From Limisphaerales bacterium (lineage in GTDB: Bacteria > Verrucomicrobiota > Verrucomicrobiia > Limisphaerales > JACDHS01), in assembly GCA_046597605.1 (NCBI GenBank), contig JBKJKE010000038.1, forward strand, positions 75,703 through 139,702: a stretch of 64,000 bases of DNA, written 5' to 3'. Position numbers and translations under genes: made by a program. Below are positions 25,725 to 43,828 of the stretch, piece after piece; the stretch's first letter is position 1, and every line of letters begins with the position of its first letter. The notes under the pieces are model-generated. The model did no database searches. It was not told the origin of the DNA and was given only the letters and a program-made list of their open reading frames with translations.

Positions 25725-27482
25725 ATGCTCGCTCGCAAGTCAAGAAAGTCGATTAACCGTCTGGACGATTCCGTCCAGTCTTCTGACCTAGAACCTCAAC
25801 ACTCATCGCTTGTCACAGAGCCGCCGAATACGCGGACCAATGTGGCTGCTGGAGAGAAAGAGTTGGCCGAAAAATTGAAAGATTTGATTCGGCTCTCTCA
25901 ACAGCAAGGGTACATCACCTACGATGACATAAATGACAGTTTGCCCGAGGAAATCATTTCCCCGGAAAAATTGGAAGAAATCTACGCCAAGCTCCGCCAG
26001 TTAAACGTCAAGATCGTTGACTCTGCGGAAGCCGCCAAGCCCAAGCCGGCCGTAGACAAGGACGAAGAAGAAGAAGATGTCCAACCCGGCCGTCTCGATT
26101 TCCTCGATGATCCGGTCCAGATGTACATGAGTGAAATGGGCAAGGTCCCATTGCTCAACCGCGAACAGGAAGTAGAGATCTGCCAACGCATTGAAACCGC
26201 TGAAGAAGAAGCAGAAAAGCTTCTCTACAGCTTCGGCTTCATCGTCAAGGAGCACATCGCTATTGCGGAGAAGTTACTCTCCGATCCTCCACGCGAACGC
26301 TATGACCGCGTTGTCGCTGACAAAAAGGTCGGCAATCGCGAACTCCATCTGAAGGAAATGAAGCGCTTGATGAAACGCGCTGGCCTCCTGGATGAAACGC
26401 TTGATAAGAAGTACTCCGGTTTGCAACGCGCTGCCAAGGCGCGTCTCCCGCTCCTGCAAAAGGAATACACCAAGCTCAACGCCAAAGTAGCAAAGACCCT
26501 TCCGGAATTTTGCTATCACCGTCGTATCCTCGAAGAGATGACCCAGGTTGGTTCAAACATCTTCGAAGCGATTCAGACGTCCATGCGGCACATCGAAGAA
26601 TTTAAACAGCACCGCAAGTCGGCCCAGCAACAGGCGATCATTGCGAATGAAGAGCAAAAGCTGAAAGAGATCGAAAAACTGATCCGGATGACACCGGAAG
26701 TTTACGTCGCTGCTTTCCGCCAATTGCGCCAGGCCGAAGAGAACGGTCAAAAAGCCAAGACTCACATGGCTGAAGCGAACCTTCGCTTGGTCGTCTCTGT
26801 CGCCAAGAAGTATCTGAACCGCGGTCAATCGCTGCTCGACTTGATTCAGGAAGGCAATATCGGCCTGATGAAAGCGATCGAGAAGTTTGAATACCAGCGC
26901 GGTTACAAATTCTCGACCTACGCCATCTGGTGGATTCGCCAGGCGATCACCCGTTCCATTGCCGATCAAGGCCGCACCATCCGTATCCCGGTGCACATGA
27001 TCGAAATCCTGAACAAGCTCTGGCGCGCTGAAAAACATTTGCTGCAGGAACTTGGTCGTGAAGCCACGAACGAAGAACTGGCTGACGAATTGGAAATGTC
27101 CGCGCAACGCGTTTTCGCGCTGCAACGCATGGCCCAGCAACCGATCTCGCTCCAGACCCCTGTCGGCGAAGAAGGTGAAGCAACCTTCGGTGACTTGATC
27201 GAAGATAAGTCGATCGAGAACCCGTGGGAAACCACCAGCTTCCATTTGCTGAAAGAACGTCTCGGCGAAGTTCTCACGACCCTCACGGAACGCGAACGTC
27301 GCGTGGTCGAAATGCGCTTCGGCTTAACCGATGGCGAAGAACGGACCCTGGAAGAAATCGGTCAGATGTACCAGGTTACCCGCGAACGTATTCGTCAGAT
27401 CGAAGCGAAAGCATTGCGTAAACTGCGTCACCCGACGCGTATCCGCCAATTGCAAGGGTTCCTTGCAGAAGAAGTGGAATAA
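25725..27482 (+). CDS. rpoD: RNA polymerase primary sigma factor (sigma-70)
   Basis: Region 2 [44 protein letters not shown], region 1.1 acidic spacer, region 4 [30 protein letters not shown]. Confidence 0.95.
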
Positions 27483-27506
27483 CCGCCTGACATTGAATTA
27501 CACCAA

Positions 27507-27536
27507 GCCGCGTTTCGAAAGGAACGCGGCTTTTTT
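27507..27536 (+). terminator. Rho-independent terminator after rpoD
   Basis: GCCGCGTT-TCGAAAGG-AACGCGGC followed by TTTTTT, 25 nt after the rpoD stop. Confidence 0.75.
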
Positions 27537-27556
27537 GATATTATCCGTCAGGAAGA

Positions 27557-29041
27557 ATGAAGCTCATAGCGCGATTGTCCGTAACTCTTGTCGCCACGCT
27601 GTCGTCCAGCCTCTTATCTCATCAACGTAACATGACTAGAAAACTTCTGTGTGCAAAGGCAGTGTCCCGGATTGGGATCTCCATCTGTCTTTTTCTTTCC
27701 ATCGTCACCACCGCTTTTGGGAAAACAGATCGACCCAATATTGTTTTCATCATTGTGGACGATCTTCGCTGGGACACCCTTAGCATCAGCGGACATCCTT
27801 TTTCCAGGACTCCGAACATTGATCGCATCGGGAAGGAAGGTGCCCTGTTCAAAAACGCGTTTGTCACCACACCACTTTGTTCTCCAGCACGCGCCAGCTT
27901 TCTGACCGGGACCTATGTCCATCAAAACGGGATTCGGGGAAATGGCCAGGAATATTCAAAACCGAGCCATGAACTGGTCACCTTCCCGAAACTCTTGCGC
28001 GATGTCGGATATGAAACCGCTTATGTCGGGAAGTGGCACATGGGTAATGACGATTCAGCACGTCCTGGGTTCGATCATTGGGTCAGCTTCAAGGGACAAG
28101 GCGTTTACGAAAACCCTGCCCTTAATGTAAACGGCAAATCAGAGAAAGTGACGGGCTACATTACCGACATCTTGAACGAACGCGCTGTTGAATACCTGAA
28201 ACAAGACCATCAAAAACCGTTCGTGCTTTATTTCGCCCACAAAGCGGTTCACGGGCCATTCACTCCAGCCCCTCGCCACAAAGGAGCCTATGCCGATAAC
28301 AAAATCACATTCGCTCCCAGCATCAAAGATTCACTCGAAGGCAAACCTGCGGTGACTCGCGAAGTAGAAGAAAAGCGACCCGGAATGAACGCGGCACGGC
28401 GCGCACGCAAAGAGTTGGTAGGGCCAAAGCTCCCCGAAGGAACAGTTTGTAATCAATTAGAGTGTTTAATTTCCATTGATGAAGGGGTTGGAAAAGTTTT
28501 GAAAGCCTTGGAGGAAAGTAAACAACTGGATAATACCCTAATCATCTTCACCAGTGACAACGGCTATTTCTGGGGTGAACACGGGCTCGGCGATAAACGA
28601 TGGGCTTACGAAGAATCGATTCGAGTTCCCCTGCTCATTCGTTATCCGAAGCTGATCAAGAGCGGCACTAAACTAGATCAACTCGCACTGAACATCGACA
28701 TCGCTCCAACCCTTCTCGAGCTCGGTGGCGCAACTATTCCCAAAGAGGTCGCCGGCAAATCGCTACTGCCGCTGTTCAAAAATAAACGCACCGATCTACG
28801 GGAATACGCCTTCCTGGAATATTTTGCCGAATCTGCTTACGTGAAACACCCAGGCTGGCAAGCGGTTCGATCGGATCGATATAAATACATTCACTACACG
28901 GCTCTCGATGGAATGGATGAGTTCTATGATCTCAAACAGGATCCTTACGAAATGAAGAACCTGATAAAGGATCCGAAAGCGGACAAAGCACTCGCAAAAT
29001 TAAAGGCTGAGCAAACCAGGTTCTTCAAAGGGACACATTAA
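27557..29041 (+). CDS. sulfatase (formylglycine-dependent arylsulfatase family), secreted
   Basis: CSPARASFLTG (C-x-P-x-R FGly motif), metal-binding DDLRWD N-terminus, signal/TM segment. True start may be the internal MTRKLL. Confidence 0.9.
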   Translation: MKLIARLSVTLVATLSSSLLSHQRNMTRKLLCAKAVSRIGISICLFLSIVTTAFGKTDRPNIVFIIVDDLRWDTLSISGHPFSRTPNIDRIGKEGALFKNAFVTTPLCSPARASFLTGTYVHQNGIRGNGQEYSKPSHELVTFPKLLRDVGYETAYVGKWHMGNDDSARPGFDHWVSFKGQGVYENPALNVNGKSEKVTGYITDILNERAVEYLKQDHQKPFVLYFAHKAVHGPFTPAPRHKGAYADNKITFAPSIKDSLEGKPAVTREVEEKRPGMNAARRARKELVGPKLPEGTVCNQLECLISIDEGVGKVLKALEESKQLDNTLIIFTSDNGYFWGEHGLGDKRWAYEESIRVPLLIRYPKLIKSGTKLDQLALNIDIAPTLLELGGATIPKEVAGKSLLPLFKNKRTDLREYAFLEYFAESAYVKHPGWQAVRSDRYKYIHYTALDGMDEFYDLKQDPYEMKNLIKDPKADKALAKLKAEQTRFFKGTH

Positions 29042-30480
29042 TGAAACGCTCGCTGTTGCTAATCGGAGCCATTCTGCTGGCTGCAATTCCTCTCCTTGCC
29101 AAAGAGCAGAAAAAACATCCGAATGTCCTCCTGATCCTATCCGATGATTTAACGTGCGCTCTTGGCAGCTACGATCATCCGATCGCCAAAACTCCCCGGA
29201 TAGATGCGTTTGCGAAGAGTGGCGTCCGATTTGAGCGCGCGTATTGCCAGTATCCACTCTGCGCACCCAGCCGTGCATCGTTCATGACTGGCCGGCGTCC
29301 GGATATCACCCAGCTTCTCGGCAACAGCGGGCACTTTCGCACAGCGTTGCCCGATGCCGTCACCATGCCGCAATTCTTCCAGAAGCAAGGATACTTCGCC
29401 GCACGCGTAGGAAAAATCTATCATTACGGCGTCCCCGGTCAGATTGGCACCGATGGAGTGGATGATCCTGTTTCCTGGAACAAAGTGATCAACCCTATGG
29501 GTATCGATAAGACCGATGCCGACGATCTCGTTAATTTCACTCCCGGAATGAAAAACATCGGCGGAGCGTTGACCTGGTTTAAGTCGAAAGGAACAGACGA
29601 AGAACAGACCGATGGCAAAGTAGCCGAGGAAACAATTCGTCTACTGGAAGCGAATAAAGACAAACCCTTCTTCATTGCCGCAGGCTTCTATCGTCCGCAC
29701 GTCCCCTGTGTGGCGCCCAGAAAATATTTCGATCTCTATCCGCTCGATAAAATCAAACCGGTGAAGTATCCAGCCGAACATCTCAAAGCAATTCCACCCA
29801 TGGCATTTGGCGATTGCCGTGACAGCTACGATGCCCTGACTGATCAACAACAACGTCAGTTCATCCAAGCCTATCTCGCCAGTGTTACTTTCATGGATGC
29901 CCAGGTCGGCAAGGTGCTGGATGCAATCGATCGATTAAAGCTGGCTGACGATACCGTGGTGATCTTCGCCAGTGATCATGGATGGCACTTAGGGGAACAT
30001 GGTCTTTGGCAGAAGATGTCTCTCTTTGAGGAAAGCGCACGTGTTCCTTTGATGATTCGTGTTCCAGGAGCAAAAGGAAATGGACGCTCCACCGCGCGCA
30101 ATGTTGAACTCATCGATCTTTACCCTACAGCAGTAGAAGCTTGTGGCTTCACCGTCCCGACCAAACTGGATGGCAAAAGCCTGGTCCCCTTGCTCCAAAA
30201 CCCAAAAGCAATATGGAATCGTCCAGCCTTCACGCAGGTCGGCAATCCAGGTTCCGAACGCCAGGGACGGTCGGTGCGAACTGAACAATGGACCTATATT
30301 GAATGGAGCAACGGCGATGGGGGAAAACAACTTTACGATCGCAAGCGGGACCCTAAAGAACTGAACAATCTTGCCGAAAATCCTGAATTTTCGAAGATTG
30401 TGCAGGAATTGCGCGCATTGCTGCGAAAACCCGCACCCAAAACGATCAAAATCAAAAAACGGGCTTCCGGGAAAATATAG
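29041..30480 (+). CDS. sulfatase (formylglycine-dependent), secreted
   Basis: CAPSRASFMTG FGly motif and signal peptide MKRSLLLIGAILLAAIPLLA. Its start overlaps the stop of the upstream sulfatase. Confidence 0.9.
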   Translation: MKRSLLLIGAILLAAIPLLAKEQKKHPNVLLILSDDLTCALGSYDHPIAKTPRIDAFAKSGVRFERAYCQYPLCAPSRASFMTGRRPDITQLLGNSGHFRTALPDAVTMPQFFQKQGYFAARVGKIYHYGVPGQIGTDGVDDPVSWNKVINPMGIDKTDADDLVNFTPGMKNIGGALTWFKSKGTDEEQTDGKVAEETIRLLEANKDKPFFIAAGFYRPHVPCVAPRKYFDLYPLDKIKPVKYPAEHLKAIPPMAFGDCRDSYDALTDQQQRQFIQAYLASVTFMDAQVGKVLDAIDRLKLADDTVVIFASDHGWHLGEHGLWQKMSLFEESARVPLMIRVPGAKGNGRSTARNVELIDLYPTAVEACGFTVPTKLDGKSLVPLLQNPKAIWNRPAFTQVGNPGSERQGRSVRTEQWTYIEWSNGDGGKQLYDRKRDPKELNNLAENPEFSKIVQELRALLRKPAPKTIKIKKRASGKI

Positions 30481-30911: not shown

Positions 30912-33089
30912 ATGACTCTGCTTCAATTCACAATAGCCGCGATTGTAGTAATCGTGATCCTCATCGCGTTTGGAACATTCGCATTTTGCATTCGAAAAAT
31001 CCAGCCCGGTCGGGCAGGAATTACCACTGGATTGCGGGGAGTCCGAGTCTCATTTGACTATATGGTGAGAATTCCATTCTTCCAGAATTACCACATCGTC
31101 GACATCTCCGTGAAGAAGCTGGAGATCTCCCGTAAAGCTAAGGACGGTCTCGTCTGCAAAGACAACATCCGGGCTGATATCACCGTTGCCTTTTACATCC
31201 GGGTTGAGGCCACCGAAGACAGTGTCCGCAAAGTTGCCATGATGCTGACACCCGAACGTGTCGCGGATATGGAACAGCTGCGCGAGTTGTTTGAAGCCAA
31301 ATTCTCCGAGGCATTGAAGACCGCGGGCAAACAGATGGAGTTCCATGAACTCTTCACCGAACGCACCAAGTTCCGCGATCAGATTCAGGGCACAATCGGA
31401 AAAGATTTGGACGGGTTCTTTTTGCAGGACGTGGCGATCGATTACCTCGAACAAACTCCGCTTGATCAACATGACCCGAACAATGTGCTCGATGCCGAAG
31501 GTATCAAGAAGATCACCCAGATCACCCAGCGCGAACGCGTCAGCGCCAACGAATTTTCCCAACGCACCTCTGTTCAGATCGAAAAAGAGAATGCCGATGC
31601 TGATATCGCCAAGCGCGAACAGAAACGGCGCAACGAAGAAGACATGGCCAAGCAGCATCGCGTGATCACCGAGATCCGTGCGAACGAAGAAGCAGAAGCC
31701 CGCAAGATCATCGAAGCCCGCCGCCAGGAAGTGGAAGGCAAGCGCCTCGAAGCCGAAGAATCGATTCGTCTGCGCACGGAAGATATGAACCGCGCCGTCC
31801 AGGAACGGGAATTCACGGTCAAAAAAGAGAAACAACGGCTCGAACAGGAAGCGCAGCAGGAAGGCGAAGAAGCACGCGTCCGTCGCGAGCGCACCGTTGC
31901 TCTTGCCGAGATGGACAAGGAAACCAAGCTTGCTGAATCCGCGGTGGACGTGGAACGGAAACGCGCCACGGTCGTTGCCGAACAAAAAGCGGTGGTTCAA
32001 CAGCAGGAAGAAAAGCTGAACATCGAAGCTCGCATGACCGCTGAACGCGTTCGCGAGGTCACTCTGATTGAAGCGGAGATGAACGCCAAAAAAGGCCAGG
32101 TCGAAAAGGTCGTTGCTGCCGAAGCTCAAAAGGAAGTCGAACGGAATATCGCTGAAGGCGAAAAGATCAAGATGATCACGGCCGCCGAAGCGGGACGCGA
32201 TGCCGCAGTCCGCGACGCAGAGAGAATTCAAACGATGGCAGACGCCGAAGCAAAGGTTTCAGACAAACGCCGCCACGCCATGGAGCAGGAGGCCGAAGGT
32301 TTGGCGGCACGGGAAGCTGCGACCGGATTGGCCGAAGCCCGCGTGATCATTGCCAAATCGGGCGCACGCACGATCGAAGCAGCTTCCATCAAGGAGATGG
32401 GGCTGGCCGAAGCGGATGTCGTCAAAGCGCGCGGAGCAATCGACGCAGAAGTTATCGAACAGAAGACCGAGGCCGAAGCAGAAGGCGTTAAGAACAAAGA
32501 GTTGGCCATTGCTGCTGGTATCGAAGCAAGAGGTGTTGCGGAAGCAAAGGCAATCGAACAAAAGGCCGGCGCAATGAAGTTGTTGCACGACGCAGGTCAG
32601 CAACACGAAGAGTTCCGCCTCCGACTGGCCAAGGAACGCGACGTCGAACTCGCGCACATCAACGTGCAGCGGGATATCGCGCAGTCGCACTCCACACTCG
32701 TTGGCGAAGCGCTCAAGAGCGCCAAGATCGACATCGTCGGCGGCGAAAACGACTTCTTCGAGAAGATCGTGCGTGCGGTTGGCAACGGCAAGTCTGTGGA
32801 CCGCCTCGTCAATAACAGCGACACGCTTAAGGATATCAAGAACACGTTCTTCAACGGCGACTCCGAGCATTTCAAGACTCAGTTGCGCCAATGGGTGGAT
32901 CAGTTCGGAGTCACAAGCGAAGACGTGAAGAACCTCACGATCTCTGCTTTGATCGCGAAGTTGATGTCGAGCACGAGCGATTCGTCGATGCTCTCGGTTC
33001 TCAGCTCTGCCCTGTCCGCAGCGAAGAGCAGCGGAATGGCAGACGCTCCGGCATCGTCCGTGATCACCCAGACCCTCGTGCGTAACTAA
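30912..33089 (+). CDS. flotillin / SPFH (band 7) family protein, long form with extended Glu/Ala/Lys/Arg-rich coiled coil
   Basis: N-terminal TM helix IAAIVVIVILIAFGTFAF, SPFH core (GITTGLRGVRVSFDYMVRIPFFQNYHIVDIS...), then ~450 aa of EA-rich heptad-like sequence typical of the flotillin domain. Confidence 0.85.
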   Translation: MTLLQFTIAAIVVIVILIAFGTFAFCIRKIQPGRAGITTGLRGVRVSFDYMVRIPFFQNYHIVDISVKKLEISRKAKDGLVCKDNIRADITVAFYIRVEATEDSVRKVAMMLTPERVADMEQLRELFEAKFSEALKTAGKQMEFHELFTERTKFRDQIQGTIGKDLDGFFLQDVAIDYLEQTPLDQHDPNNVLDAEGIKKITQITQRERVSANEFSQRTSVQIEKENADADIAKREQKRRNEEDMAKQHRVITEIRANEEAEARKIIEARRQEVEGKRLEAEESIRLRTEDMNRAVQEREFTVKKEKQRLEQEAQQEGEEARVRRERTVALAEMDKETKLAESAVDVERKRATVVAEQKAVVQQQEEKLNIEARMTAERVREVTLIEAEMNAKKGQVEKVVAAEAQKEVERNIAEGEKIKMITAAEAGRDAAVRDAERIQTMADAEAKVSDKRRHAMEQEAEGLAAREAATGLAEARVIIAKSGARTIEAASIKEMGLAEADVVKARGAIDAEVIEQKTEAEAEGVKNKELAIAAGIEARGVAEAKAIEQKAGAMKLLHDAGQQHEEFRLRLAKERDVELAHINVQRDIAQSHSTLVGEALKSAKIDIVGGENDFFEKIVRAVGNGKSVDRLVNNSDTLKDIKNTFFNGDSEHFKTQLRQWVDQFGVTSEDVKNLTISALIAKLMSSTSDSSMLSVLSSALSAAKSSGMADAPASSVITQTLVRN

Positions 33090-33230
33090 TCGAATGCGAA
33101 GCATGCGAACGCTTGAGCAGGAATGAATTGCGAGCCTCGAACTCCCGGCAGGTTGCTCGGACTTCGAGCCCTGGTTCATCACTGTTGAGTGTTCGTCGTT
33201 TTAGGAATTCCGTGATTCGTCAGTATCCTT

Positions 33231-36200
33231 TTGTTTGAGGTAACAATGGCCGACAACTTACCGAAAGAGCAGACCACCACCCCTGCTCCAGAGCAAACAC
33301 CGGGGGCATCGTCTGTCCTGGGCAATGCGACGTATGAAATCATTCGTCAGCGTTTGCAAAGCCAGGGCAACCTGCTGCGCGAACGTATGTCCAAGCTGGA
33401 TGGCGCGCGACAAGAGGTCTTTGGCAATGTTGAGTTCAAGCTTCTCCAGGCAGATCGCATCACCACATCCCACAACTGCATTCCGCAGGACATGGTGCAA
33501 CTCGGTCACGGACGCTTTCTCTTTGGATTCAATATCCAGTTCGGCCTGAAGAAGGAAATTGAGCTCACCGATGTCTTCGCAATTTACCATCGTGATCAGG
33601 AGGCCGGCACATTCAAGGAATCGGATCTCGAATCATTGGGAGACAAAAACTTTCTCACCGACTTCAAGCGTCTTTACAACGTTTATACCAAAGCTTCGTT
33701 CAGCAAGTTTTCCGTGATCGAAGGCTGCCTCTACATGGTGTTCAACACCGGCAGCGGAGCAAATGACCATGCGGTTTTTAAATGGGCATTCCTGGGAGAT
33801 GCATTGCGTTATGTCGATGGCCGCGCCGAAAGCGAATACCGCAAAGTTGGTTTTCCGCCACCGTTCGAGTTCCGTTGGCAAACTCCGAATCGCGAATCAT
33901 TTCGTTATGGAGACCATCCTCATATCTCGATCGAAGACCGCGTATTCGTAGAATGCGTCGGCGGCGATCTCACGATCAAAGTCGAAGACAACACGAAGAC
34001 TGGGGAAGGTGTTTTTAGTGAACCGGTTGAGGACAAGAACCAGAAAGTCGATGATGCAGAGATCGCTTATGCGATCATTGAGCATTTGATCCTTCTCAAG
34101 ATTCGCCCGTACAAGGAAACGAACCCGCGTTTTTTCATCTTCAACGAGAAGCTGAACCAGGCCGTGCGCGTGGATTCACTAGGGCAATCGTGCGTGCTCC
34201 TCCCGGAAGATCACGGACTTATTTTTCCGGACGGATATTATCTGGGCACTGGCGAACTGAAACAGTTCGAGAGCAAAGAAAAAGGGATGACAATTGAGCG
34301 CGTCATCAATTCGCCCAACGGCGAAGATTCTCTCTACGTCTTTTATGGTCGCGAGAAAGGCGAGTATTCGCTCATGCCCTATCGGTTGATCTCACAGAAG
34401 GTCGAAGAGCGAATCAGTTGCCACGGTTACTCCCTTTTTCCCAACGGTCACCTGGTTTCCTTCCGCAGCGAACCAGAAGCGCAGAAGCATCACATGATTC
34501 AGCTTCGGCAAACCCCGTTCTATCAAGCGGGCCACGAGCCAAGCGGTAAGAAAGACGCTTTCCTTTACCAGGTTGGAAACAAGGATGTCGTTCGCGCCCT
34601 GGCCGAATGCAACGAAGTCCTGACGCTCGTCCGGAAAGAAAATCCATACGCAGAACTCTATTCCGACCTGGTGAAGCGCTGTAGTTCGATGCTGGATGCG
34701 TATCCCTGGCTCAATACGGAACACGCATTCGGAATCAACGAGGCGTTGCGCCAGGTGCGGGAAGTTGCCGACAAAGCCGTCGACGAATTCGACAAGGTTC
34801 GTCGGATGCAACGCGAGGCAGTCCAGAAGGTGAAAGAGGTTCGAGAACGGACCGAAGAACGCTTCAACTTATTGCGCCGAGCCAGTTTCAATAAGCTCGA
34901 AGACTTCGTTCATAATCTTTCAGCATTGCGCCATCTCCGCGGTGAACTCATCACCCTCAAGGAACTTCGATACGTGGACGTCGCTCTGCTTGAAACGATC
35001 GAGAAACAAGTTACCGAACAGACAGAGCAACTTTCCACCTCATGCGTCCAGTTCCTGCTCAAGCCGGAAGCTCTTGAGCCGTATCGCAAGCAAGCCGCCG
35101 AACAATCTGCGGCAGTCGAAAAGGTCACGAGGACAGCCGAAGGTAAAAAGATCGAGAAAGCTGTGTCCGAGGCGGGTGCCGAACTCGAGATGCTGATCGA
35201 GATCGTAAACAGTCTTAAGATTGAGGATGCCACCGAAACGACGCGTATTATTGATGCGATCACCACGGTATATTCAACGCTGAACCAGATTAAAGCGGCG
35301 TTGAAGAAACAGTTGCAGAGTCTTGCTGCCGCCGAAGGTGCCGCCCAGTTCAGTGCTCAAATTAAGTTACTAAGCCAGGCCGCGGCAAGTTACCTGGACC
35401 TGTGCGATTCACCGGCGAAATGTGATGAATACCTCAATCGCATCACAGTGCAACTGGAAGAACTTGAAGGCACTTTTGCAGATTTCGAAGAATACACGGT
35501 TCAACTGTCCGATCGCCGGACAGAACTCTACGAAGCGTTTGAACAAAGGAAGATCGCTTTAGTCGAACAACGCAATCGCAAGGCCAACGGTCTTCTGACC
35601 GCAGCGGAACGCATCTTGAAGGTAATCCAGAATCGTTTGGCTGGATTCGGGACGATCGAAGACATCAACACCTACATGGCCTCGGATATGATGGCCGCGA
35701 AGGTGCGCGAAACGATCGTCCAGTTGCTCGCACTGGACGATGCAGTTAAAGCCGACGATTTGCAGGGCCGCATCAAAAGTGTTCACCAGGATGCGGTGCG
35801 ACAGCTGAAGGATCGCAACGAACTGTTCGTGGGCGGTGAGAACGTCATCCAGTTGGGGAAACATCGCTTCAACATCAACACCCAACCGCTCGACCTCACG
35901 GTGGTGAATCGGGACGGGGTCCAGAACATTCACCTTACCAGCACGAAGTATTTCGAAGAGATCACCGATCCAGAATTTCTTGCAACGCGCGAGGTATGGA
36001 ACCAGGAAGTCATTTCCGAAAACCAACTGGTCTACCGGGGCGAGTATCTTGCCTATAAGCTGCTGCAATCCCTTGAAGCCGAAAACAAGAGCGCAGAGGT
36101 TCTGGCCATGTCCGAGTCGGATCGGCTCGCCCTGTTGCAGAACTTCATGACCTCCCGTTATCAGGAGAGTTACACCAAGGGGATTCATGATCTTGATGGA

Positions 36201-38675
36201 GCCAGGATTTTCCATGCGTTACTAACCACTCACCAGGCGCTTCAACTCGCGCGCTTTCATCCAACGATACGTGCCTGTGCCGTGGTGTTCTGGTTCCAAT
36301 TCTGTCCGGCAGAGGCGCGAGCGCTCTGGACTTCCAAGCTCAAAGGCTTCGCTGAGAAGAATAAATTCTTCCCCGGTGACACCACACAACAGACTTACGT
36401 TACGGCGCTGCAAAAGCTGATTGGAAGTTTCATTGAAGAAACTCAGCTTTACGGGAAAGAGCACGCCGAGGCGGCTGGGGAATACCTCTTTCAACAACTC
36501 ATCAGCAGTGATTCCATCGTGGTGAGTTACGAGGCGGACAAACTGGTTGCAGATTTTAAAAAGCATCTCGCCTCCAAAGGCTGTGAGGATGCTTTTACCA
36601 AAGCAAATGAAGCATTAACGGAACACCCGGCCAGCCGATTGGAACTGATCCGCGATTGGTCGCGTGGGTTTCTTCTGAAGCAGGACGGACTCAATACTTA
36701 CTTGGAAGAAGTCAGCGCCCTGCTTTTCTGTGGCGACAAAGTGCAACGCAATGTAGTCCGCACCGAAACGACTGCAACGATCGAAGGAATTCGCGCCAGC
36801 CACAATCTGATCAATGGGAGCACCTATCATTTCGATTACCTGTCCTTCCAGGCGAAGCTAAAACGATTTGAGAAGGAAGTTGTGCCACCCTTCCTGCGGT
36901 ATCACGAACTGAAACAACAACTGGTGGAACGCGAGCGTCGTCGCTTGCGGTTGGATGAATTCAAACCGCGCGTGCTTGGTTCCTTCATGCGCAGCCAGTT
37001 GTTGGACGAAGTTTATCTGCCGATGGTCGGCGACAATCTGGCCAAGCAGATTGGTGCCGCAGGTGCGCAGAAGCGGACCGACTTGATGGGACTGCTCCTG
37101 CTGATTTCTCCTCCCGGTTACGGCAAAACCACGTTGATGGAGTATGTCGCCAGCCGTCTCGGGATCGTTTTCGTTAAGATCAACGGCCCTGCCCTCGGTC
37201 ATGAGGTGACTTCTCTCGATCCGGAAGAAGCACCGAACGCGGCAGCGCGTGAAGAAGTGCAGAAGCTGAACCTCGCGTTGGAAATGGGAGACAACGTCCT
37301 AATTTGTGTAGACGACATTCAGCACACCAATCCGGAGTTCCTCCAGAAGTTTATCTCCCTGTGCGACGGCCAACGCAAGATCGAAGGCGTGTGGCGTGGC
37401 AAACCGCGCACTTACGACCTACGCGGACGCAAAGTGGTGGTTGTAATGGCCGGCAATCCTTACACCGAGAGCGGTCAAAAATTCAAATTGCCCGACATGC
37501 TCGCGAACCGCGCGGACACCTACAATCTCGGCGATATCATTGGTGGAAAAATCGACTACTTCAAATCGAGCTACATCGAGAATGCGGTCACTTCCAATGC
37601 CATCCTGGCGCAGCTTGCGAACAAAAGTCAGAAAGACGTGCGCAATTTCATTCGGATGGCGCAGCAAGGTGACCGGGACACAGCCGGGTTCGAAGGAAGT
37701 TACTCCGCCCAGGAAGTTGAAGAGATTCTCTCGGTGGTTAAGAAGTTGGTCACAATCCGAGAAGTCGTTTTCAAGGTAAACCTCGAATACATCCATTCCG
37801 CCGCACAGTCGGACGAGTTCCGCACGGAACCCCCGTTCCGACTCCAGGGTTCGTATCGTAACATGAATCGGCTTACCGAAAAGGTTGTGCCGATTATGAA
37901 CGAAGACGAAGTGAAGGCGCTTTTGATTGATCATTACCGAAGTGAATCACAAACGCTGACGACGGGAGCCGAAGGCAACTTCCTCAAATTTAAAGAAATG
38001 ATGGGCTGGGCCACCCCTGAAGAAAAAGTGCGATGGGACGACATCAAGAGGACGTTCAAACGCAACCAACTCACCCGTGGGGTGGATCAAAGCGATGCCG
38101 CTGGGCGAGTCGTAGCGCAGCTATCCAGCGTTCAAGCTGGTCTTGAAGCAATCCAGGCTACGATGGAGAAGCAGCTTTCAAAACCGCAGCCGCAGTTCGT
38201 GGTGGATTTCTCCCCGCTCCAGCCAGGTCTTGAGTCCTTACGCGCTGCAATCGAGAGTCAGTCATCGAATTCAGCAAAGCAAAGCGGCGACGGAGCCATC
38301 ACGCGAAATGAAATCGTTATCTCGGAACAATTCACCGAAGCAATGAATTCATTGCGCGAGGAATTAAGTCGCGCAATTGCGGCAGACCGCGCCAGCACCG
38401 TGGCAGAACGCCTTTCCAACGTGTTGCATGAAATGAAGATCATGCACAGCACGCTGGCTACTCTGAAGGACGTTACTTCCCAACAGCGGGACCATTTGCG
38501 GAACGTTGAAGAAAAGCTGACGGCACAGGCAAAAGATGGCGTCGTGGAGTTCGCGCTGACTCAAGAAATGTTGCAGAACGAACAGGCGTTTCTGGACAAG
38601 TTTCAGCAGGCACTCTCACAGACGGAAAAACCGGCTGAACCTGAACCAATAAAGAAGCCCGGAAAGACAAAGTAG
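33231..38675 (+). CDS. giant (1814-aa) protein with a single AAA_5 (MoxR/dynein/McrB-type) ATPase domain embedded in long helical/coiled-coil regions
   Basis: Walker A LLISPPGYGKTTLMEY at ~aa 1277. Walker B-like VLICVDDIQH. AAA_5-type sensor/Arg-finger block VVVVMAGNPYTESGQKFKLPDMLANRADTYNL. The ~1200 residues before it and ~400 after it have no recognisable domain. Starts 141 nt after the flotillin gene. Confidence 0.8.
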   Translation: MFEVTMADNLPKEQTTTPAPEQTPGASSVLGNATYEIIRQRLQSQGNLLRERMSKLDGARQEVFGNVEFKLLQADRITTSHNCIPQDMVQLGHGRFLFGFNIQFGLKKEIELTDVFAIYHRDQEAGTFKESDLESLGDKNFLTDFKRLYNVYTKASFSKFSVIEGCLYMVFNTGSGANDHAVFKWAFLGDALRYVDGRAESEYRKVGFPPPFEFRWQTPNRESFRYGDHPHISIEDRVFVECVGGDLTIKVEDNTKTGEGVFSEPVEDKNQKVDDAEIAYAIIEHLILLKIRPYKETNPRFFIFNEKLNQAVRVDSLGQSCVLLPEDHGLIFPDGYYLGTGELKQFESKEKGMTIERVINSPNGEDSLYVFYGREKGEYSLMPYRLISQKVEERISCHGYSLFPNGHLVSFRSEPEAQKHHMIQLRQTPFYQAGHEPSGKKDAFLYQVGNKDVVRALAECNEVLTLVRKENPYAELYSDLVKRCSSMLDAYPWLNTEHAFGINEALRQVREVADKAVDEFDKVRRMQREAVQKVKEVRERTEERFNLLRRASFNKLEDFVHNLSALRHLRGELITLKELRYVDVALLETIEKQVTEQTEQLSTSCVQFLLKPEALEPYRKQAAEQSAAVEKVTRTAEGKKIEKAVSEAGAELEMLIEIVNSLKIEDATETTRIIDAITTVYSTLNQIKAALKKQLQSLAAAEGAAQFSAQIKLLSQAAASYLDLCDSPAKCDEYLNRITVQLEELEGTFADFEEYTVQLSDRRTELYEAFEQRKIALVEQRNRKANGLLTAAERILKVIQNRLAGFGTIEDINTYMASDMMAAKVRETIVQLLALDDAVKADDLQGRIKSVHQDAVRQLKDRNELFVGGENVIQLGKHRFNINTQPLDLTVVNRDGVQNIHLTSTKYFEEITDPEFLATREVWNQEVISENQLVYRGEYLAYKLLQSLEAENKSAEVLAMSESDRLALLQNFMTSRYQESYTKGIHDLDGARIFHALLTTHQALQLARFHPTIRACAVVFWFQFCPAEARALWTSKLKGFAEKNKFFPGDTTQQTYVTALQKLIGSFIEETQLYGKEHAEAAGEYLFQQLISSDSIVVSYEADKLVADFKKHLASKGCEDAFTKANEALTEHPASRLELIRDWSRGFLLKQDGLNTYLEEVSALLFCGDKVQRNVVRTETTATIEGIRASHNLINGSTYHFDYLSFQAKLKRFEKEVVPPFLRYHELKQQLVERERRRLRLDEFKPRVLGSFMRSQLLDEVYLPMVGDNLAKQIGAAGAQKRTDLMGLLLLISPPGYGKTTLMEYVASRLGIVFVKINGPALGHEVTSLDPEEAPNAAAREEVQKLNLALEMGDNVLICVDDIQHTNPEFLQKFISLCDGQRKIEGVWRGKPRTYDLRGRKVVVVMAGNPYTESGQKFKLPDMLANRADTYNLGDIIGGKIDYFKSSYIENAVTSNAILAQLANKSQKDVRNFIRMAQQGDRDTAGFEGSYSAQEVEEILSVVKKLVTIREVVFKVNLEYIHSAAQSDEFRTEPPFRLQGSYRNMNRLTEKVVPIMNEDEVKALLIDHYRSESQTLTTGAEGNFLKFKEMMGWATPEEKVRWDDIKRTFKRNQLTRGVDQSDAAGRVVAQLSSVQAGLEAIQATMEKQLSKPQPQFVVDFSPLQPGLESLRAAIESQSSNSAKQSGDGAITRNEIVISEQFTEAMNSLREELSRAIAADRASTVAERLSNVLHEMKIMHSTLATLKDVTSQQRDHLRNVEEKLTAQAKDGVVEFALTQEMLQNEQAFLDKFQQALSQTEKPAEPEPIKKPGKTK

Positions 38676-38709
38676 CAATCGCAGTGTTCGGTAATCGGAG
38701 AAAAAGCAC

Positions 38710-39516
38710 ATGAGAAAGTTCATCCACAAAATTCAGGATCTAAGCAAAAAAGCCGTTGAACTGAACCAGGCTTTACAAGGTTTACCCGGGAAAGCGGCGG
38801 AGGCGCGCCAGGCGATCGTGATGAGCGCGGGAGAACTCCAACAAATCCGGAGCGATGTTCAAACGAGCCTGAACGGCTTGCGCGCCACCAGCGAGAATGG
38901 GCTGCTCCAGGCCATGCGCGAGATCAATGATGCCACGGATATCTTCGAGGAAGCTGGCTATGAACTTACTGGGATGGATCTCGACCTCGCCCTGGCTCAA
39001 CGCCTGTCCGCGCAGCTGCAAAAGTTCGAAGATGTTCCTCACACGACGTTACAAACCTTGCTCGCGCAACAGACCGGGGAAACAATCAAGTCCGTCCTCT
39101 CCGGAATTATCAAAGCAGAAGAAACTGCTGCGAATATCGAACTCACGCATCTGAAGCTGGATGGTGTGATCATTCATGTGGGCGCCATTCCGATTATTCG
39201 GATGTGCTGGAGGAGCGACACGTTTGTTGAACAAGTCACAGCAGAGCCGGCCCAGCAATTCGTATCCACGGTTCCGTCAGTATCGGCAGCGGTTCCGCAG
39301 TCATCTGCTGCCTACGGCTCGGGTTCGTTCTTTGAACAGAAGGCCCCCAGTTCCGCGCAGACGGCTTTGCCCTATGCACCGTCCAGCGCCGAAGCAAAAC
39401 CATCCGCTTTCACCTCGTCCACGCACTGGGATAAAAAAGTGGTCGAAACCAGCGGAGCGAAAGTAAGCGCACTCGATCGTTTCAAGAAGATGCCGGATCT
39501 TTCGAAACGGGCGTGA
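38710..39516 (+). CDS. hypothetical helical protein (268 aa), downstream partner of the giant ATPase
   Basis: Starts 35 nt after the giant ORF stop. N-terminal coiled-coil-like region, Ser/Ala/Pro-rich tail. No motif. Confidence 0.5.
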   Translation: MRKFIHKIQDLSKKAVELNQALQGLPGKAAEARQAIVMSAGELQQIRSDVQTSLNGLRATSENGLLQAMREINDATDIFEEAGYELTGMDLDLALAQRLSAQLQKFEDVPHTTLQTLLAQQTGETIKSVLSGIIKAEETAANIELTHLKLDGVIIHVGAIPIIRMCWRSDTFVEQVTAEPAQQFVSTVPSVSAAVPQSSAAYGSGSFFEQKAPSSAQTALPYAPSSAEAKPSAFTSSTHWDKKVVETSGAKVSALDRFKKMPDLSKRA

Positions 39517-39547: not shown

Positions 39548-40039
39548 TCACTTCTGATCCTCATTGGCCTTTCTAAGTTCTTCGTTGTGCTCTGCCAAAG
39601 CACGGACACGACTAATTTGGCCGTTCGATTCCCTCCAATAGGGCACGTTGTTTGTGTAGAAGAACCGGTCGAGCGATCGGAACTGTTGTTCAGGGTCCAA
39701 TTTGCTAGCTGGAAGAATTTCCTGGGAAATCTTCCCCTTCCGAATACGCACTATGCACATCCAATACCTTTTATCTGCACTACCGCCCCAATAGCGTGAA
39801 CCGGAGCACCACCTTTTTTCCCGCGAATGGTTGCACTTTGTGGCTACCCCGTTCTCTACGGCGAAATCAACCCATCCCTCATCCGCATCATTCAGGGACC
39901 GGCTGACCAGCGACGACTCACCATCCCAAATAACACTCCCATTAAGTGCATGAAGTTTCCCTGCGCGCCGCCGGACTCTACCTGATGTGTCTTGATGGTC
40001 TTTGGGCTTCGCCGTTGCTAGCCAACTCGCCGCCCACAC
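39548..40039 (-). CDS. hypothetical protein (doubtful; only C-terminal ~70 codons look protein-like)
   Basis: 163-aa ORF convergent with 38710-39516. The N-terminal half is Trp/Arg-rich and may be non-coding. Confidence 0.2.
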   Translation of the reverse strand: MWAASWLATAKPKDHQDTSGRVRRRAGKLHALNGSVIWDGESSLVSRSLNDADEGWVDFAVENGVATKCNHSREKRWCSGSRYWGGSADKRYWMCIVRIRKGKISQEILPASKLDPEQQFRSLDRFFYTNNVPYWRESNGQISRVRALAEHNEELRKANEDQK

Positions 40040-40136
40040 CCGGCCTCTCTGTCCGTTCGTATTCCTGCGGTCGCAGGTTTGCCTGCTGCTTTTTTCAGCC
40101 GCCGCCTCGCGGCATCAACCTTGCAGTTCGGCTACC

Positions 40137-40350: not shown

Positions 40351-41415
40351 TCATCGGCTTTGCACAACCACCTTGAACCTGGTGCCAAGATGACTTGGAT
40401 GAGTCAGAGTCTGGAACTGTGCCAGTCGTTTTCGATCCCACTGCGCCGCTGACATGGAAGTATTACTCAACAACTGGGTTAAGAATTTTGCCTGGGAATC
40501 GAAGAACTCTGTTTTCAGTCCAGCGGCTTCTCCCGCCGCGATGATGGCAGAAAAATTAATATGGGAAGTGATATCCTGATCTCCGGGATTGGCTAAAAGG
40601 TCCTCGACAAGATGATGTTTGAAATAAGCGCGGGCGGTTCCCCTGCTCCGTTCTGGCGAAAGGAGTTGTTCACCTGTGATCCCGTAATCGATTGCCACTA
40701 ACTTGCCTTGCTTCAGTTTTTCGGCAGCGGACTGCCACCAGAGAGAGGCAGCGGGTGAAATCTCGGTGGTGAAACCGTCAGGCAATACTTCGGCTAGTTC
40801 GCTCGGCACGAAAGGAAGTTCGAGTCGGTCGCCTGAAAAGTGATCCATCACCCAGAAGAATTCCCGATTCACAGTCCAAGACACTTTCAACTCCATCCAT
40901 TGATTCAATTGTTTATTCCAGGAGATGCGATGGAACGGCATCGCATCGAGCAACTCATTGGAAAAGACGATCCCGGTGAACGCTTCTACGTCATCCCAAC
41001 TTTCCGCCCACCAGGCGTGTGGGAAGTTCTGGAGCTTCTCTTGCTGCCAAGCCTGGTGAGTGGGCGACGGTTCAATGATTCCATAGCGAATTCTCTCCCC
41101 GAGTTTCGGATCGCACCGCCGCAACGCTTCAAGAATATCCAACGCAAGTTGACCGTCGTTTGCTCCGCATTCAACAATATGCAACGGGGTTGTTGCTTCG
41201 TATTGAGCCAGGCATTGAGAGAATTGAGCAGCCAGCAGTTCGCCGAATAGACATCCAACGCTGACACTGGTGTAAAAGTCTCCCGCGCGCCCGACTCTGC
41301 CCTTTTGTTCGTAATAACCAAGTGCTGGCGCGTAAAGTGCTAGTTCCATGAAACGAGCAAAAGAAATGGGTCCATTGTTCTCAATATCGCGAACGATGCT
41401 TTGTTTCAGATTCAT
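40351..41415 (-). CDS. class I SAM-dependent methyltransferase, MidA/DUF185 (NDUFAF7-like) family
   Basis: YYEQKGRVGRAGDFYTSVSVGCLFGELLA is the hallmark DUF185 N-terminal block. Start set at MNLKQSIV (41415). Divergent from pilT. Confidence 0.7.
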   Translation of the reverse strand: MNLKQSIVRDIENNGPISFARFMELALYAPALGYYEQKGRVGRAGDFYTSVSVGCLFGELLAAQFSQCLAQYEATTPLHIVECGANDGQLALDILEALRRCDPKLGERIRYGIIEPSPTHQAWQQEKLQNFPHAWWAESWDDVEAFTGIVFSNELLDAMPFHRISWNKQLNQWMELKVSWTVNREFFWVMDHFSGDRLELPFVPSELAEVLPDGFTTEISPAASLWWQSAAEKLKQGKLVAIDYGITGEQLLSPERSRGTARAYFKHHLVEDLLANPGDQDITSHINFSAIIAAGEAAGLKTEFFDSQAKFLTQLLSNTSMSAAQWDRKRLAQFQTLTHPSHLGTRFKVVVQSR

Positions 41416-41470
41416 TAACTTGCGGTTTAATGGGGTATAGGTAAAACTCCCATCTCTTTGCTTAGTAGTT

Positions 41471-42562
41471 ATGGCCAAAATTGACGCCTTTTTCAACCTG
41501 ATGCTGGAGCAAAAAGCTTCAGACTTGCACATGTCTTCAGGAAATCCGCCTATCCTGCGGATCAACGGTGAGTTGCAACGCGTGGATTATCCTCCGCTGG
41601 AAAACGACCAGTTGAAGACGATGCTCTACGAAATTTCTCCGGAATATAAGATCAAACATTTCGAAGAAACCGGCGATGTTGACTTCGGTTATGAAATTCC
41701 GGGAGTGTCTCGCTTTCGCGCAAACTTCTTCAACCAGAAGTACGGCATCGCCGCCGTCTTCCGCCAGATTCCTTCGAAGGTGTTGTCCTTTGATGACTTT
41801 GAAAAATTCGATGCTCCGATGCCAGGTGTTCTGAAGAAATTCTGCATGTTGCATCGTGGGCTGGTTGTCGTCACCGGGCCTACCGGTTCCGGTAAGTCCA
41901 CGACGCTCGCTGCGATGGTCGACTACTCGAACAAGAACCGCAAAGATCACATTATCACGGTTGAAGACCCGATCGAATTTGTGCACGAGAGCAAGAATTG
42001 CCTCGTGAACCATCGTGAAGTCGGCGTTCACACCAAGTCATTCGCGGCGGCACTCAAAGGTGCTCTCCGTGAAGATCCGGATATCGTGCTGGTCGGTGAG
42101 TTGCGGGATTTGGAAACCATCGAACTCGCGCTGACGGCTGCGAGCACAGGGCATTTGGTCTTCGGCACACTGCACACTCAGAGTGCTGCGAAAACCGTGG
42201 ATCGTATCATCGACGTTTTCCCTGCTGAACAGCAGAACAAAATCCGAGCCACCCTTTCTGAATCACTCAAGGGCATCGTCGCGCAGAACTTGTTCAAGCG
42301 CATTGATAAGAAAGGCCGTGTCGCAGCCCTTGAGATCCTGGTCTTTACCACGGCTGTCGCCAACCTGGTTCGCGAAGGAAAAACACATCAAATTCCCGGT
42401 ATGATTCAGGTCGGTAAGAAGCTCGGCAACATGCCGTTGGATGACAGCATCATGGAACATCTCCGCATGAAGCGTATTTCCCCGGAAGAAGCTTACGATA
42501 AGTGCCTTGATAAGAAAAAATTCCGTCCCTTCCTGGCGCACCCTCCTGAGGACGAAGAATAA
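41471..42562 (+). CDS. pilT: type IV pilus twitching-motility ATPase PilT
   Basis: MAKIDAFFNLMLEQKASDLHMSSGNPPILRINGEL N-terminus. Walker A GPTGSGKST. Conserved AIRH-like region GHLVFGTLHT. Confidence 0.9.
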   Translation: MAKIDAFFNLMLEQKASDLHMSSGNPPILRINGELQRVDYPPLENDQLKTMLYEISPEYKIKHFEETGDVDFGYEIPGVSRFRANFFNQKYGIAAVFRQIPSKVLSFDDFEKFDAPMPGVLKKFCMLHRGLVVVTGPTGSGKSTTLAAMVDYSNKNRKDHIITVEDPIEFVHESKNCLVNHREVGVHTKSFAAALKGALREDPDIVLVGELRDLETIELALTAASTGHLVFGTLHTQSAAKTVDRIIDVFPAEQQNKIRATLSESLKGIVAQNLFKRIDKKGRVAALEILVFTTAVANLVREGKTHQIPGMIQVGKKLGNMPLDDSIMEHLRMKRISPEEAYDKCLDKKKFRPFLAHPPEDEE

Positions 42563-42595
42563 GATTTTGTCGGACCAGTCACTTTTTGAAATAAT

Positions 42596-43828
42596 ATGCG
42601 CAGAAACGAACTCGATCATATCCTGAAAACGATGCTGGAAGGCCCAGCCATCGATTCTGCAACCAAGAAGGATATCTCCGATCTAAACTTTACGGTGGAT
42701 AAACCACTGCAAGTGGAACACATGGGCGAGTTGGTTGTGATTCAATCGGCACCTCCGATTGAGAAGTTGACCCCTTATCAGACAGAGATGGTTGCTCTCA
42801 ATCTGGTCGGGGCAAACTTCCGGTTGCTGGAAGACCTCCTGCGGTTTGGATCCTGCGACTGTGCTTATACCTTGACTGGCCTCGCCCGGTTTCGCGTAAA
42901 CATTTTTTCTCAACGCGGAAACTACTCTATCGTCTTGCGTAAGTTGAACACCAAGATTCCCTCACTGCAGGATTTGGAGATGCCGCAAATCTTCCGTGAG
43001 GTTGCGAAAGAGAAAACCGGGCTGGTGCTGGTCACTGGAGCAACTGGTTCTGGTAAATCAACAACGCTCGCTGCGTTGCTGGACGAGGTAAACGATACGC
43101 GCGCCGTTCACATCATTACTCTGGAGGATCCGGTAGAATTCATTCATGAACAGCGTTTGGCGACTTTCAATCAACGCGAACTCGGCAATGACTTTAGTAC
43201 TTTTGTTGCGGGGCTAAGGGCCGCGTTGCGTCAGGCACCCAAAATCATTCTGGTTGGGGAAATGCGTGATCGTGAAACGGTTGAAATTGCTTTGAGTGCT
43301 GCGGAAACGGGCCATCTGGTGATGAGCACATTGCACACAATCGACGCGGGACAAACGATCAATCGTGTTCTTGGTCTCTTTGATCAATCGGAACAGGAAC
43401 AGGTGAGGCGCCGGTTGTCAGATACCTTGCGTTGGGTTATTAGCCAACGTCTCGTGCCAAAAATCGGCGGGGGCCGTCTCGCACTCCTGGAAATCATGGG
43501 ATCGAACATGCGAACCCAGGAAACCATCATGCAGGGCGAAAGCGAAGGTAAGAGCTTCTATGAAATCGTAGAAGCGAGCTACCCGTTTGGCTGGCGCACT
43601 TTTGATGCTTCCTGCATCGAAGCGTATGAAAACGGTGCCATCACAGAAGAAACCGCCGAACTCTATTCCAGCAAAAAAGGTGTCGTCGTCCGCAAGATCG
43701 ATTACGTCAAGAAGGCTCGAGGTGAGGCAGCAATGAATTCAAACGATTTGCGTATGAAGTCGCTGTTGGATGCCAACCCGAGTGCCGGTGCCCCCCCCCA
43801 GATCCCGAACAGGCTAAAACTTAAATAA
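42596..43828 (+). CDS. PilT/PilU-family retraction ATPase paralog
   Basis: Walker A GATGSGKST. The GHLVMSTLHT block is paralogous to the upstream pilT. 410 aa with an extended C-terminal tail. Confidence 0.85.
   Translation: MRRNELDHILKTMLEGPAIDSATKKDISDLNFTVDKPLQVEHMGELVVIQSAPPIEKLTPYQTEMVALNLVGANFRLLEDLLRFGSCDCAYTLTGLARFRVNIFSQRGNYSIVLRKLNTKIPSLQDLEMPQIFREVAKEKTGLVLVTGATGSGKSTTLAALLDEVNDTRAVHIITLEDPVEFIHEQRLATFNQRELGNDFSTFVAGLRAALRQAPKIILVGEMRDRETVEIALSAAETGHLVMSTLHTIDAGQTINRVLGLFDQSEQEQVRRRLSDTLRWVISQRLVPKIGGGRLALLEIMGSNMRTQETIMQGESEGKSFYEIVEASYPFGWRTFDASCIEAYENGAITEETAELYSSKKGVVVRKIDYVKKARGEAAMNSNDLRMKSLLDANPSAGAPPQIPNRLKLK

Follow-up and report, generated by a model that had tools for sequence, protein, structure and literature searches.

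A conserved flotillin and DUF3686 AAA+ ATPase gene pair with a Verrucomicrobiota-specific neighbour in a Limisphaerales bacterium

In a stretch of 64,000 nucleotides (nt) from a Limisphaerales bacterium (assembly GCA_046597605.1, contig JBKJKE010000038.1, positions 75,703 to 139,702), hereafter the window, three consecutive genes on the forward strand encode a long flotillin of the YqiK type (g1), a giant ATPase of the DUF3686 family with a single AAA+ module (g2) and a small protein with relatives in Verrucomicrobiota (g3). A preliminary description of this region, made from the sequence, had recognized three co-directional open reading frames (ORFs), which were found again at the same positions, and had interpreted them as an undescribed membrane module. 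A comparison of related loci showed that the flotillin and ATPase genes form a two-gene core, evidently inherited as same-strand neighbours across at least seven bacterial lineages. This pairing is already known from comparative genomics (Ravi et al., 2024), and the claim of novelty therefore holds only for g3 and for an architecture without a YqiJ-like gene, both of which appear to be new. We see about an even chance that the locus is a conserved membrane module of the cytoplasmic face in which g2 serves as an ATP-driven remodeller of flotillin assemblies.

A scan using one genome per species yielded at least 583 confirmed DUF3686 matches; the 80 loci returned among the matches listed span Verrucomicrobiota, Planctomycetota, Bacteroidota, Desulfobacterales, Clostridia, Kiritimatiellota and Chitinispirillaceae. 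Flotillin linkage was counted by tblastn in the 63 loci whose upstream sequence exceeds 2.5 kb. In 60 of these, a g1 orthologue (35–76% identity) is positioned directly upstream on the same strand, at a variable distance from the DUF3686 sequence (median 191 nt between aligned ends). This same-strand adjacency over several phyla strongly supports the interpretation of the two genes as a functional unit, and the synteny between ATPase homologues and flotillin genes, to which the preliminary description had tied its proposal of a linked three-gene module, is thus present; where g3 occurs, it adjoins the DUF3686 gene in all the contexts looked up. The module is also found in cultured members of Flavobacterium, Hymenobacter, Pontibacter, Leeuwenhoekiella, Rubritalea and Roseibacillus. 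At the protein level, 880 clusters (50% identity) match the N-terminal 700 amino acids (aa) of g2, 278 of them at E <= 1e-30, and most of these proteins are 1,600–1,930 aa in length.

All-against-all clustering of the neighbouring ORFs identified no further gene conserved across all phyla. A gene for a protein of approximately 220 aa with three transmembrane segments, weakly similar to E. coli YqiJ, lies directly upstream of the flotillin gene in 50–53 loci. In 13–17 Bacteroidota loci, the complete string comprises genes for a helix-turn-helix protein with an S24 peptidase domain (on the opposite strand), a CesT_Tir_1 protein (E = 1e-56), a PspA_IM30 protein (E = 1e-36), the YqiJ-like protein, the flotillin and the DUF3686 protein, and a gene of the phospholipase D (PLD) type (PLDc_2) is found near the pair in a few loci. 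The recurrence of YqiJ/NfeD-like, PspA and CesT-like neighbours places the pair in a flotillin/PspA membrane-maintenance network. The flotillin–ATPase pair would thus be the invariant core, and YqiJ, PspA, CesT and PLD would be dispensable accessories. The earlier statement that flotillins are paired with NfeD-type partners and not with AAA proteins did not hold, as both YqiJ/NfeD-like and AAA+ genes are present in 47 of the 51 loci with enough flanking sequence on both sides. No suitable ORF for a YqiJ-like protein is located upstream of g1, and nothing within the 64-kb window matches a profile of 50 YqiJ-like neighbours at E <= 1, which suggests that the lineage represented by the window has lost this gene.

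Ravi et al. (2024; mSystems, PMC11237479) describe a neighbourhood of flotillin and a 'beta-propeller/coiled-coil/AAA+' protein with YqiJ/YuaF (NfeD-like), PspA and CesT-like components, the prototype being the neighbourhood of ANH61663.1 in Dokdonia donghaensis; some proteobacterial versions include a phospholipase D gene, and 'abbreviated' operons without the CesT/Tir–PspA dyad exist. The interpretation offered there is a general 'chaperone-like / membrane dynamics' role, and the paper reports no experiments. The Bacteroidota loci identified here reproduce the string described there gene for gene, and the order and orientation of g1 and g2 in the window agree with it. The Bacteroidota DUF3686 proteins are 43–49% identical to g2 over approximately 1,600 residues, which, together with their identical neighbours, indicates that g2 is orthologous to the ATPases of the Bacteroidota operons. 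Unlike the described operon, the window contains no YqiJ/YuaF-like, PspA or CesT-like gene and has g3 downstream instead; g3 corresponds to no component named in the accessible sections of the paper, the PspAA domain being outside this comparison. A literature search found no paper naming DUF3686 or PF12458, nor any paper on a 'DNA repair ATPase' together with flotillin. A paper on the bac cluster of P. aeruginosa, judged from its accessible part, appears to be unrelated to the flotillin/AAA+ module.

The assignment of g1 to the flotillins is based on three results: a BLASTP match to E. coli YqiK that begins at residue 6 and includes the SPFH region (32% identity over 456 aa, E = 2e-42), an hhalign probability of 100% between YqiK and a profile of 34 g1 orthologues, and a Band_7 match in 4 of these 34 orthologues. 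By these comparisons, g1 is a genuine, long YqiK-type flotillin; a Pfam search of g1 itself gave no match at all, Band_7 included. The protein has one hydrophobic segment, the N-terminal anchor, and its residues 195–603 are rich in Ala, Glu, Arg and Lys (17% Ala and 17% Glu) and predicted to be helical over approximately 400 residues, in line with the membrane-anchored coiled-coil flotillin of the preliminary description. More than 7,000 homologues are present in the databases, where they bear names such as flotillin family protein or YqiK, and the closest relatives, 75–84% identical, come from metagenome bins of Verrucomicrobiota (Limisphaerales-type). A search of PDB sequences with the g1 profile retrieved only QmcA, through the coiled-coil part. 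NfeD–flotillin operons are known from E. coli (yqiJ-yqiK) and B. subtilis (yuaF-floT). The anchor, the SPFH region and the first coiled-coil of g1 are homologous to YqiK, and in most other phyla a gene for a YqiJ-like membrane protein likewise precedes the flotillin gene. In contrast, g1 exceeds YqiK by approximately 170 residues, no YqiJ-like gene is present in the window, and the annotated yqiJK operon of E. coli has no downstream AAA+ gene.

The domain composition of g2 proved to be richer than previously thought: an AAA_5 ATPase module had been regarded as its only recognizable element, and DUF3686 and DUF7902 domains were detected as well (Table 1). The DUF3686 match reaches 548.6 bits (cut-off 25) and covers positions 2–447 of the 448-position model. 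The DUF3686 domain and helical sequence together account for approximately 1,250 residues N-terminal to the single AAA+ module, and neither g2 nor g3 contains a hydrophobic or transmembrane segment. The AAA+ block is the most conserved part of g2, with a column identity of 67–74% as compared with 10–45% elsewhere. The ATPase motifs quoted in the preliminary description are present, and GYGKT, DD, N1404, R1422 and R1538 do not vary among 27 homologues whose overall identities are 30–47%; in the light of AAA+ proteins in general, we take these motifs to be the Walker, sensor-1, Arg-finger and sensor-2 elements. The module therefore appears to possess all catalytic AAA+ motifs and to be active. 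Its score is 24.8 bits for AAA_5 (gathering score 22) and 30.7 bits for generic AAA in Pfam, and all 13 family members compared match both models (best E-values, 5e-9 for AAA_5 and 2e-9 for AAA). Among PDB profiles, Rix7, NVL and p97 rank highest and midasin lower, with matches that lie mainly in the Walker A stretch and, in the classical AAA proteins, cover approximately 40–70 residues; hhalign gave a probability of 16% for RavA and of 88% for FtsH, the latter over 34 columns only.

The third protein, g3, is without a known family, as had been stated: it matches nothing in Pfam, NCBIfam or the PDB sequences, and no fold match was obtained. Sequence and profile searches returned 70 and 241 homologues, respectively, all of them unnamed; where a taxon is given, it is Verrucomicrobiota, except in two third-party annotation records labelled 'Methylomirabilota'. 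The alignment shows a conserved N-terminal portion of 170 residues followed by a Pro/Ala/Ser-rich linker, a short GSFFEQR motif (GSFFEQK in the window) in the disordered tail, and a nearly invariant C-terminal motif, which in the window reads LDRFKKMPDLSK. Proteins of a divergent marine subgroup terminate in KW-x-x-FPD-[IV]-S, so that the two forms share the core [FW]-x-x-[MF]-P-D-[LIV]-S. An AlphaFold2 model of g3 built from 66 sequences (predicted local distance difference test score, pLDDT, 78) predicts a helical hairpin at aa 2–53, a compact alpha/beta domain of the order a-b-b-a-a-b-b at aa 60–170 (pLDDT >= 95) and a disordered tail. Flotillin, YqiJ-like, PspA and CesT-like proteins of other loci do not contain the C-terminal motif and thus provide no support for a docking peptide shared with them.

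Homologues of g3 were found in only 6 of the 80 loci (L001, L002, L003, L005, L006 and L007), all from Verrucomicrobiota, and g3 adjoins the DUF3686 gene in every context looked up. It is co-directional with the ATPase gene in L082, L084 and L085; in L082, and seemingly in L002, its start overlaps the stop codon of g2 by 4 nt. In the marine subgroup (L006, L007, L088 and L089), it is convergent to g2 and divergent from a PLD-like gene. One of the close relatives, L004, lacks g3 over a distance of 10 kb, which indicates that g3 is not obligatory. The 51 loci with sufficient flanks comprise 47 with the YqiJ-like gene only, three with g3 only, one with neither and none with both (nominal Fisher p 2e-4). 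As a side observation, the marine PLDc_2 gene (E = 1e-30; L006:16574-19393, L007:9259-12573, L088:5389-9839 and L089:3091-6207) is followed by a gene for a large protein of approximately 700–1,240 aa, which appears by eye to be multi-pass in L006 and L007 and has faint beta-propeller matches in L088; this arrangement recalls the PLD gene mentioned for proteobacterial operon versions in PMC11237479.

The positions of the genes and their features are compiled in Table 1. The ORF originally listed for g2 starts at a TTG codon (33231-38675, forward strand) and encodes 1814 aa. This ORF is present, and its end is unchanged, but the true start is most likely the ATG codon given in Table 1, since this codon is preceded by a Shine-Dalgarno-like sequence and a public gene call for the identical sequence also comprises 1,809 aa. 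The gap between g2 and g3 is 34 nt. Neither this gap nor the g1–g2 spacer contains a terminator-like site, and the predicted RNA fold of the spacer is no better than that of shuffled sequence (z = -1.46), which makes co-transcription of g1, g2 and g3 plausible; an Rfam search of the spacer returned nothing. The region directly 5′ of g1 is non-coding over 430 nt. Two ORFs on the opposite strand within g1 (31050-32231, 393 aa, and 32259-33182, 307 aa) are by-products of the Glu/Ala/Lys/Arg-rich coding sequence of the coiled coil, and the same artefact of length-greedy ORF calling was observed in the flotillin genes of five related loci. In some other loci, small genes lie between the flotillin and DUF3686 genes, which indicates that this spacer tolerates insertions; judged by eye only, one group is DUF559/endonuclease-like (L024:818-1258, L037:9530-9952 and L039:9359-9916) and a second is GxxExxY/PD-(D/E)XK-like (L029:9501-9920, L043:9532-9906 and L075:76-501).

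Table 1. Genes of the locus and features within them, in window coordinates
Feature	Position	Strand	Remarks
g1	30912..33089	+	725 aa, ATG start; YqiK-type flotillin (SPFH)
g1, anchor			aa 1-31
g1, SPFH region			~aa 32-195
g1, Ala/Glu-rich helical region			~aa 195-603
g1, conserved C-terminal domain			~aa 560-725
g1–g2 spacer	33090..33245	+	156 nt; Shine-Dalgarno-like GAGG 5 nt before the g2 ATG
g2	33246..38675	+	1,809 aa; DUF3686-family giant AAA+ ATPase; start most likely at this ATG
g2, DUF3686 (PF12458)	33375..34703	+	aa 49-491; E = 1.1e-164 (Pfam)
g2, DUF7902 (PF25472)	35067..35315	+	aa 613-695; E = 4e-24; inside the long helical middle region
g2, AAA+ module	36984..38045	+	Pfam AAA and AAA_5 both above cut-offs
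g2, Walker A, SPPGYGKTT	37107-37133	+	aa 1288-1296
g2, Walker B, VDDIQH	37308-37325	+	aa 1355-1360
g2, sensor-1 region, MAGNPYTESG	37446-37475	+	stretch MAGNPYTESG...ANRAD, aa 1401-1424
g2, candidate Arg finger, ANRAD	37503-37517	+	
g2, candidate sensor-2, QGSYRNMN	37845-37868	+	
g3	38710..39516	+	268 aa, ATG start; Verrucomicrobiota-specific partner
g3, GSFFEQK	39322-39342	+	GSFFEQR in alignment; short motif, disordered tail
g3, LDRFKKMPDLSK	39472-39507	+	C-terminal motif, nearly invariant in alignment

On the basis of these features, the following mechanism is proposed. The flotillin g1 would build a large oligomeric assembly of the SPFH type at the inner face of the membrane. The ATPase g2 would oligomerise via its single AAA+ module, dock on this assembly via the N-terminal DUF3686 domain and the long helical arms, and spend ATP in building up, taking apart or reshaping the flotillin scaffold or the proteins contained in it, in a manner that may be analogous to that of FtsH with HflK/C or of Vps4 on ESCRT-III. 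The third protein, g3, may be a lineage-specific adaptor or regulator that replaces the YqiJ/NfeD-like partner in one clade of Verrucomicrobiota and docks, probably, via its C-terminal peptide. Everything in this scheme beyond a functional link, an active-looking AAA+ module and a location at the cytoplasmic face is inferred. A bolder version seems to us distinctly less probable and is offered tentatively: that the pair represents an unrecognized class of membrane-remodelling machine, in which a ring-forming AAA+ protein builds or dismantles flotillin cages and, where present, PspA/ESCRT-III polymers in the role that Vps4 has in archaea and eukaryotes, and in which g3 represents a novel adaptor fold, inserts its C-terminal peptide into the DUF3686 domain and replaces NfeD/YqiJ in one Verrucomicrobiota clade.

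Proteins of the SPFH family assemble into large cages attached to membranes. The AAA+ protease FtsH is surrounded by HflK/C in such a cage, which is periplasmic, and prohibitin is paired with the m-AAA protease. The proposal for g1 and g2 shares with HflK/C–FtsH the coupling of an SPFH membrane scaffold to an AAA+ ATPase. It differs in that g2 lacks both a protease domain and a transmembrane segment, is presumably cytoplasmic and is homologous to FtsH only in the P-loop stretch. A large cage has been described for flotillin (PMC11260169, abstract), and the PDB entry of the SPFH protein QmcA (8z5g) contains 26 chains.

Several results weigh against the view of g2 as a remodeller of flotillin assemblies. 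At the level of the ATPase, neither Pfam nor the PDB profiles nor hhalign appears to favour the AAA_5/MoxR-type model over classical AAA or the reverse, so that the earlier placement in the AAA_5 clade is no better than one in generic AAA. Since similarity to PDB and Pfam entries is confined mainly to the Walker A stretch, an unfoldase-like mechanism also stays an inference, and the loop at the presumed position of pore-loop 1, as judged against p97, has no aromatic residue. The designation of the DUF3686 region as a beta-propeller comes from the literature only (Ravi et al., 2024): a search of PDB sequences with the DUF3686 profile retrieved zero relatives at E <= 10, and an hhalign comparison of the two halves of the domain detected no blade repeats. 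For the flotillin, the AlphaFold2 monomer model based on 38 close homologues was poor (pLDDT 61, with values <50 in the SPFH region) and was kept out of the fold search, the identity of g1 being set by sequence comparison with YqiK. The three loci of the 63 that have no flotillin upstream (L014, L018 and L058) showed no alternative SPFH gene on inspection, and the 64-kb window contains no PspA, CesT-like or PLD gene in addition to lacking the YqiJ-like gene. With regard to g3, its convergent orientation in the marine subgroup indicates that g2 and g3 are not always co-transcribed, and the pattern in which g3 and the YqiJ-like gene exclude each other represents essentially one replacement event, because the loci with g3 form one clade. 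Finally, the literature search found no experimental data for any member of the module.

The length of sequence that precedes the single AAA+ module of g2, approximately 1,250 residues, could also fit a structural or mechanical element and not an unfoldase that remodels substrates. Such an element might be a coat, tether or stalk that connects flotillin domains with another cellular structure, its AAA+ module being an assembly switch under nucleotide control. The score of the AAA_5 model, which covers proteins of the dynein/midasin/MoxR type, is on a par with that of generic AAA at the family level, g2 being above the AAA_5 gathering score and all 13 members matching this model. The stretch NP-x-x-E-x-G-x(3)-L-P-x(2)-L-x-x-R, from sensor-1 to the Arg finger, resembles MoxR-type sequences, and the absence of an aromatic residue at the presumed pore-loop-1 position would fit as well. 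Compared with MoxR/AAA_5 ATPases (RavA, midasin and dynein), g2 scores equally well or better with generic AAA, has no VWA partner gene and is not a six-module ring polypeptide but has a single module. Against a structural role, the hhalign probability for RavA is low, no second partner is conserved across phyla and nothing points to a tethered structure, and we therefore regard this explanation as unlikely, if the best placed of the rivals to a remodelling ATPase.

In the ESCRT-III system, it is the AAA+ ATPase Vps4 that recycles the polymers, and the concept of a membrane-bound polymer with its own remodelling AAA+ ATPase could apply to g2 in another way: g2 may be the bacterial counterpart of Vps4 that disassembles PspA/ESCRT-III polymers, with flotillin serving only as the membrane platform. 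In 17 of the 80 loci, all in Bacteroidota, a PspA gene of the yjfJ type, and thus of the ESCRT-III superfamily, and a gene for a CesT-like chaperone stand in the same gene string, as they do in PMC11237479. The PspA proteins of these operons end in a conserved D/E-x-L-x-x-L-K-x-x-L/M-G-L motif (genes L035:5774-6505 and L048:3848-4579, and those of L054, L056, L062, L073 and L077). This motif may resemble the MIM1 helix of ESCRT-III proteins that is bound by the MIT domain of Vps4. Moreover, no Vps4-like ATPase is known in bacteria, where it appears to be absent according to a 2025 review (PMC7619361). In most loci, however, including the window, the pair occurs without a nearby PspA gene, and the invariant partner of the ATPase is flotillin and not PspA, which as an accessory of 17 of the 80 loci weakens this explanation. 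A Pfam search detected no MIT domain in g2, which is not a Vps4 orthologue; g3 is not PspA-like, and the window contains no PspA/Snf7 gene. A counterpart of Vps4 devoted to PspA polymers thus seems to us somewhat less probable still than a structural role.

Membrane-associated defence systems exist, and a large ATPase with coiled coils, adjoined in some loci by a PLD-like gene, could be read as part of an anti-phage or envelope-defence system, one of the roles suggested in the preliminary description. That description had also stated that no named defence system has this composition, and PADLOC (PADLOC-DB 2.0) indeed returned no significant match, the best hits (E = 0.002-0.004) being restricted to coiled-coil or P-loop stretches. 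The same result argues against a defence role, as does the absence of any relative in 2.9 million viral contigs. The flotillin is 75–84% identical among close relatives, which we read as housekeeping-like conservation, the genes around the locus in the window are housekeeping genes, and the flanks of related loci are not defence islands; a defence function is accordingly considered very improbable. Least credible of all is the idea that g2 is a DNA-repair or SMC-like ATPase with incidental flotillin adjacency, to which the Pfam description line of DUF3686 ('ATPase involved in DNA repair') and weak matches of the RuvB_N and LmuB/JetC type could point, given that the RuvB match is far below the cut-off and confined to the P-loop (24.7 vs 282 bits), that no SMC_N or ABC model matches and the sole NTPase element is one internal AAA+ module and not a split ABC/SMC head, that no DNA-binding domain was detected in g2, and that the gene has kept its place next to that of a membrane protein in 60 of 63 loci.

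The surroundings of the locus appear to consist of ordinary chromosomal genes. The flanks (25725-30480 and 40351-43828) encode a sigma-70 factor resembling RpoD, two sulfatases side by side, a Methyltransf_28 protein (opposite strand) and two paired T2SSE ATPases of the PilT/PilU type. Between the stop codon of g3 and the Methyltransf_28 gene, a strong match to RF02001 (group II intron D1-D4) was detected on the reverse strand at 39948-40116 (87.5 bits; gathering score, 32). No D5/D6 match was found at E <= 0.1, and an overlapping 163-aa ORF (39548-40039, reverse strand) has no Pfam match and does not seem to resemble a reverse transcriptase; the element is probably an ORF-less or decayed intron. 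The window contains no tRNA genes. Between positions 26000 and 40000, a block of forward-strand genes that includes g1, g2 and g3, the AT skew is markedly positive (0.09-0.19), in keeping with coding strands rich in purines.

In the discussion of membrane microdomains, bacterial flotillins figure widely as organisers, and the pair bears on the way in which flotillin assemblies are formed, renewed and coupled to energy. In hundreds of species of at least seven lineages, the gene of an AAA+ protein of 1,600-1,900 residues almost always stands immediately behind that of a dedicated flotillin, and because of this position the DUF3686 AAA+ protein is an obvious candidate for the energy source of flotillin assemblies. 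The pairing itself will not surprise specialists who know the 2024 paper (PMC11237479), and the module is widespread and strikingly conserved. It bears both on the energising of bacterial flotillin assemblies and on what may replace Vps4 in bacteria, and the window shows a lineage-specific third component beside the invariant flotillin–ATPase core. As cultured Bacteroidota and Verrucomicrobiota carry the module, the question of whether its ATPase energises flotillin assemblies is directly testable.

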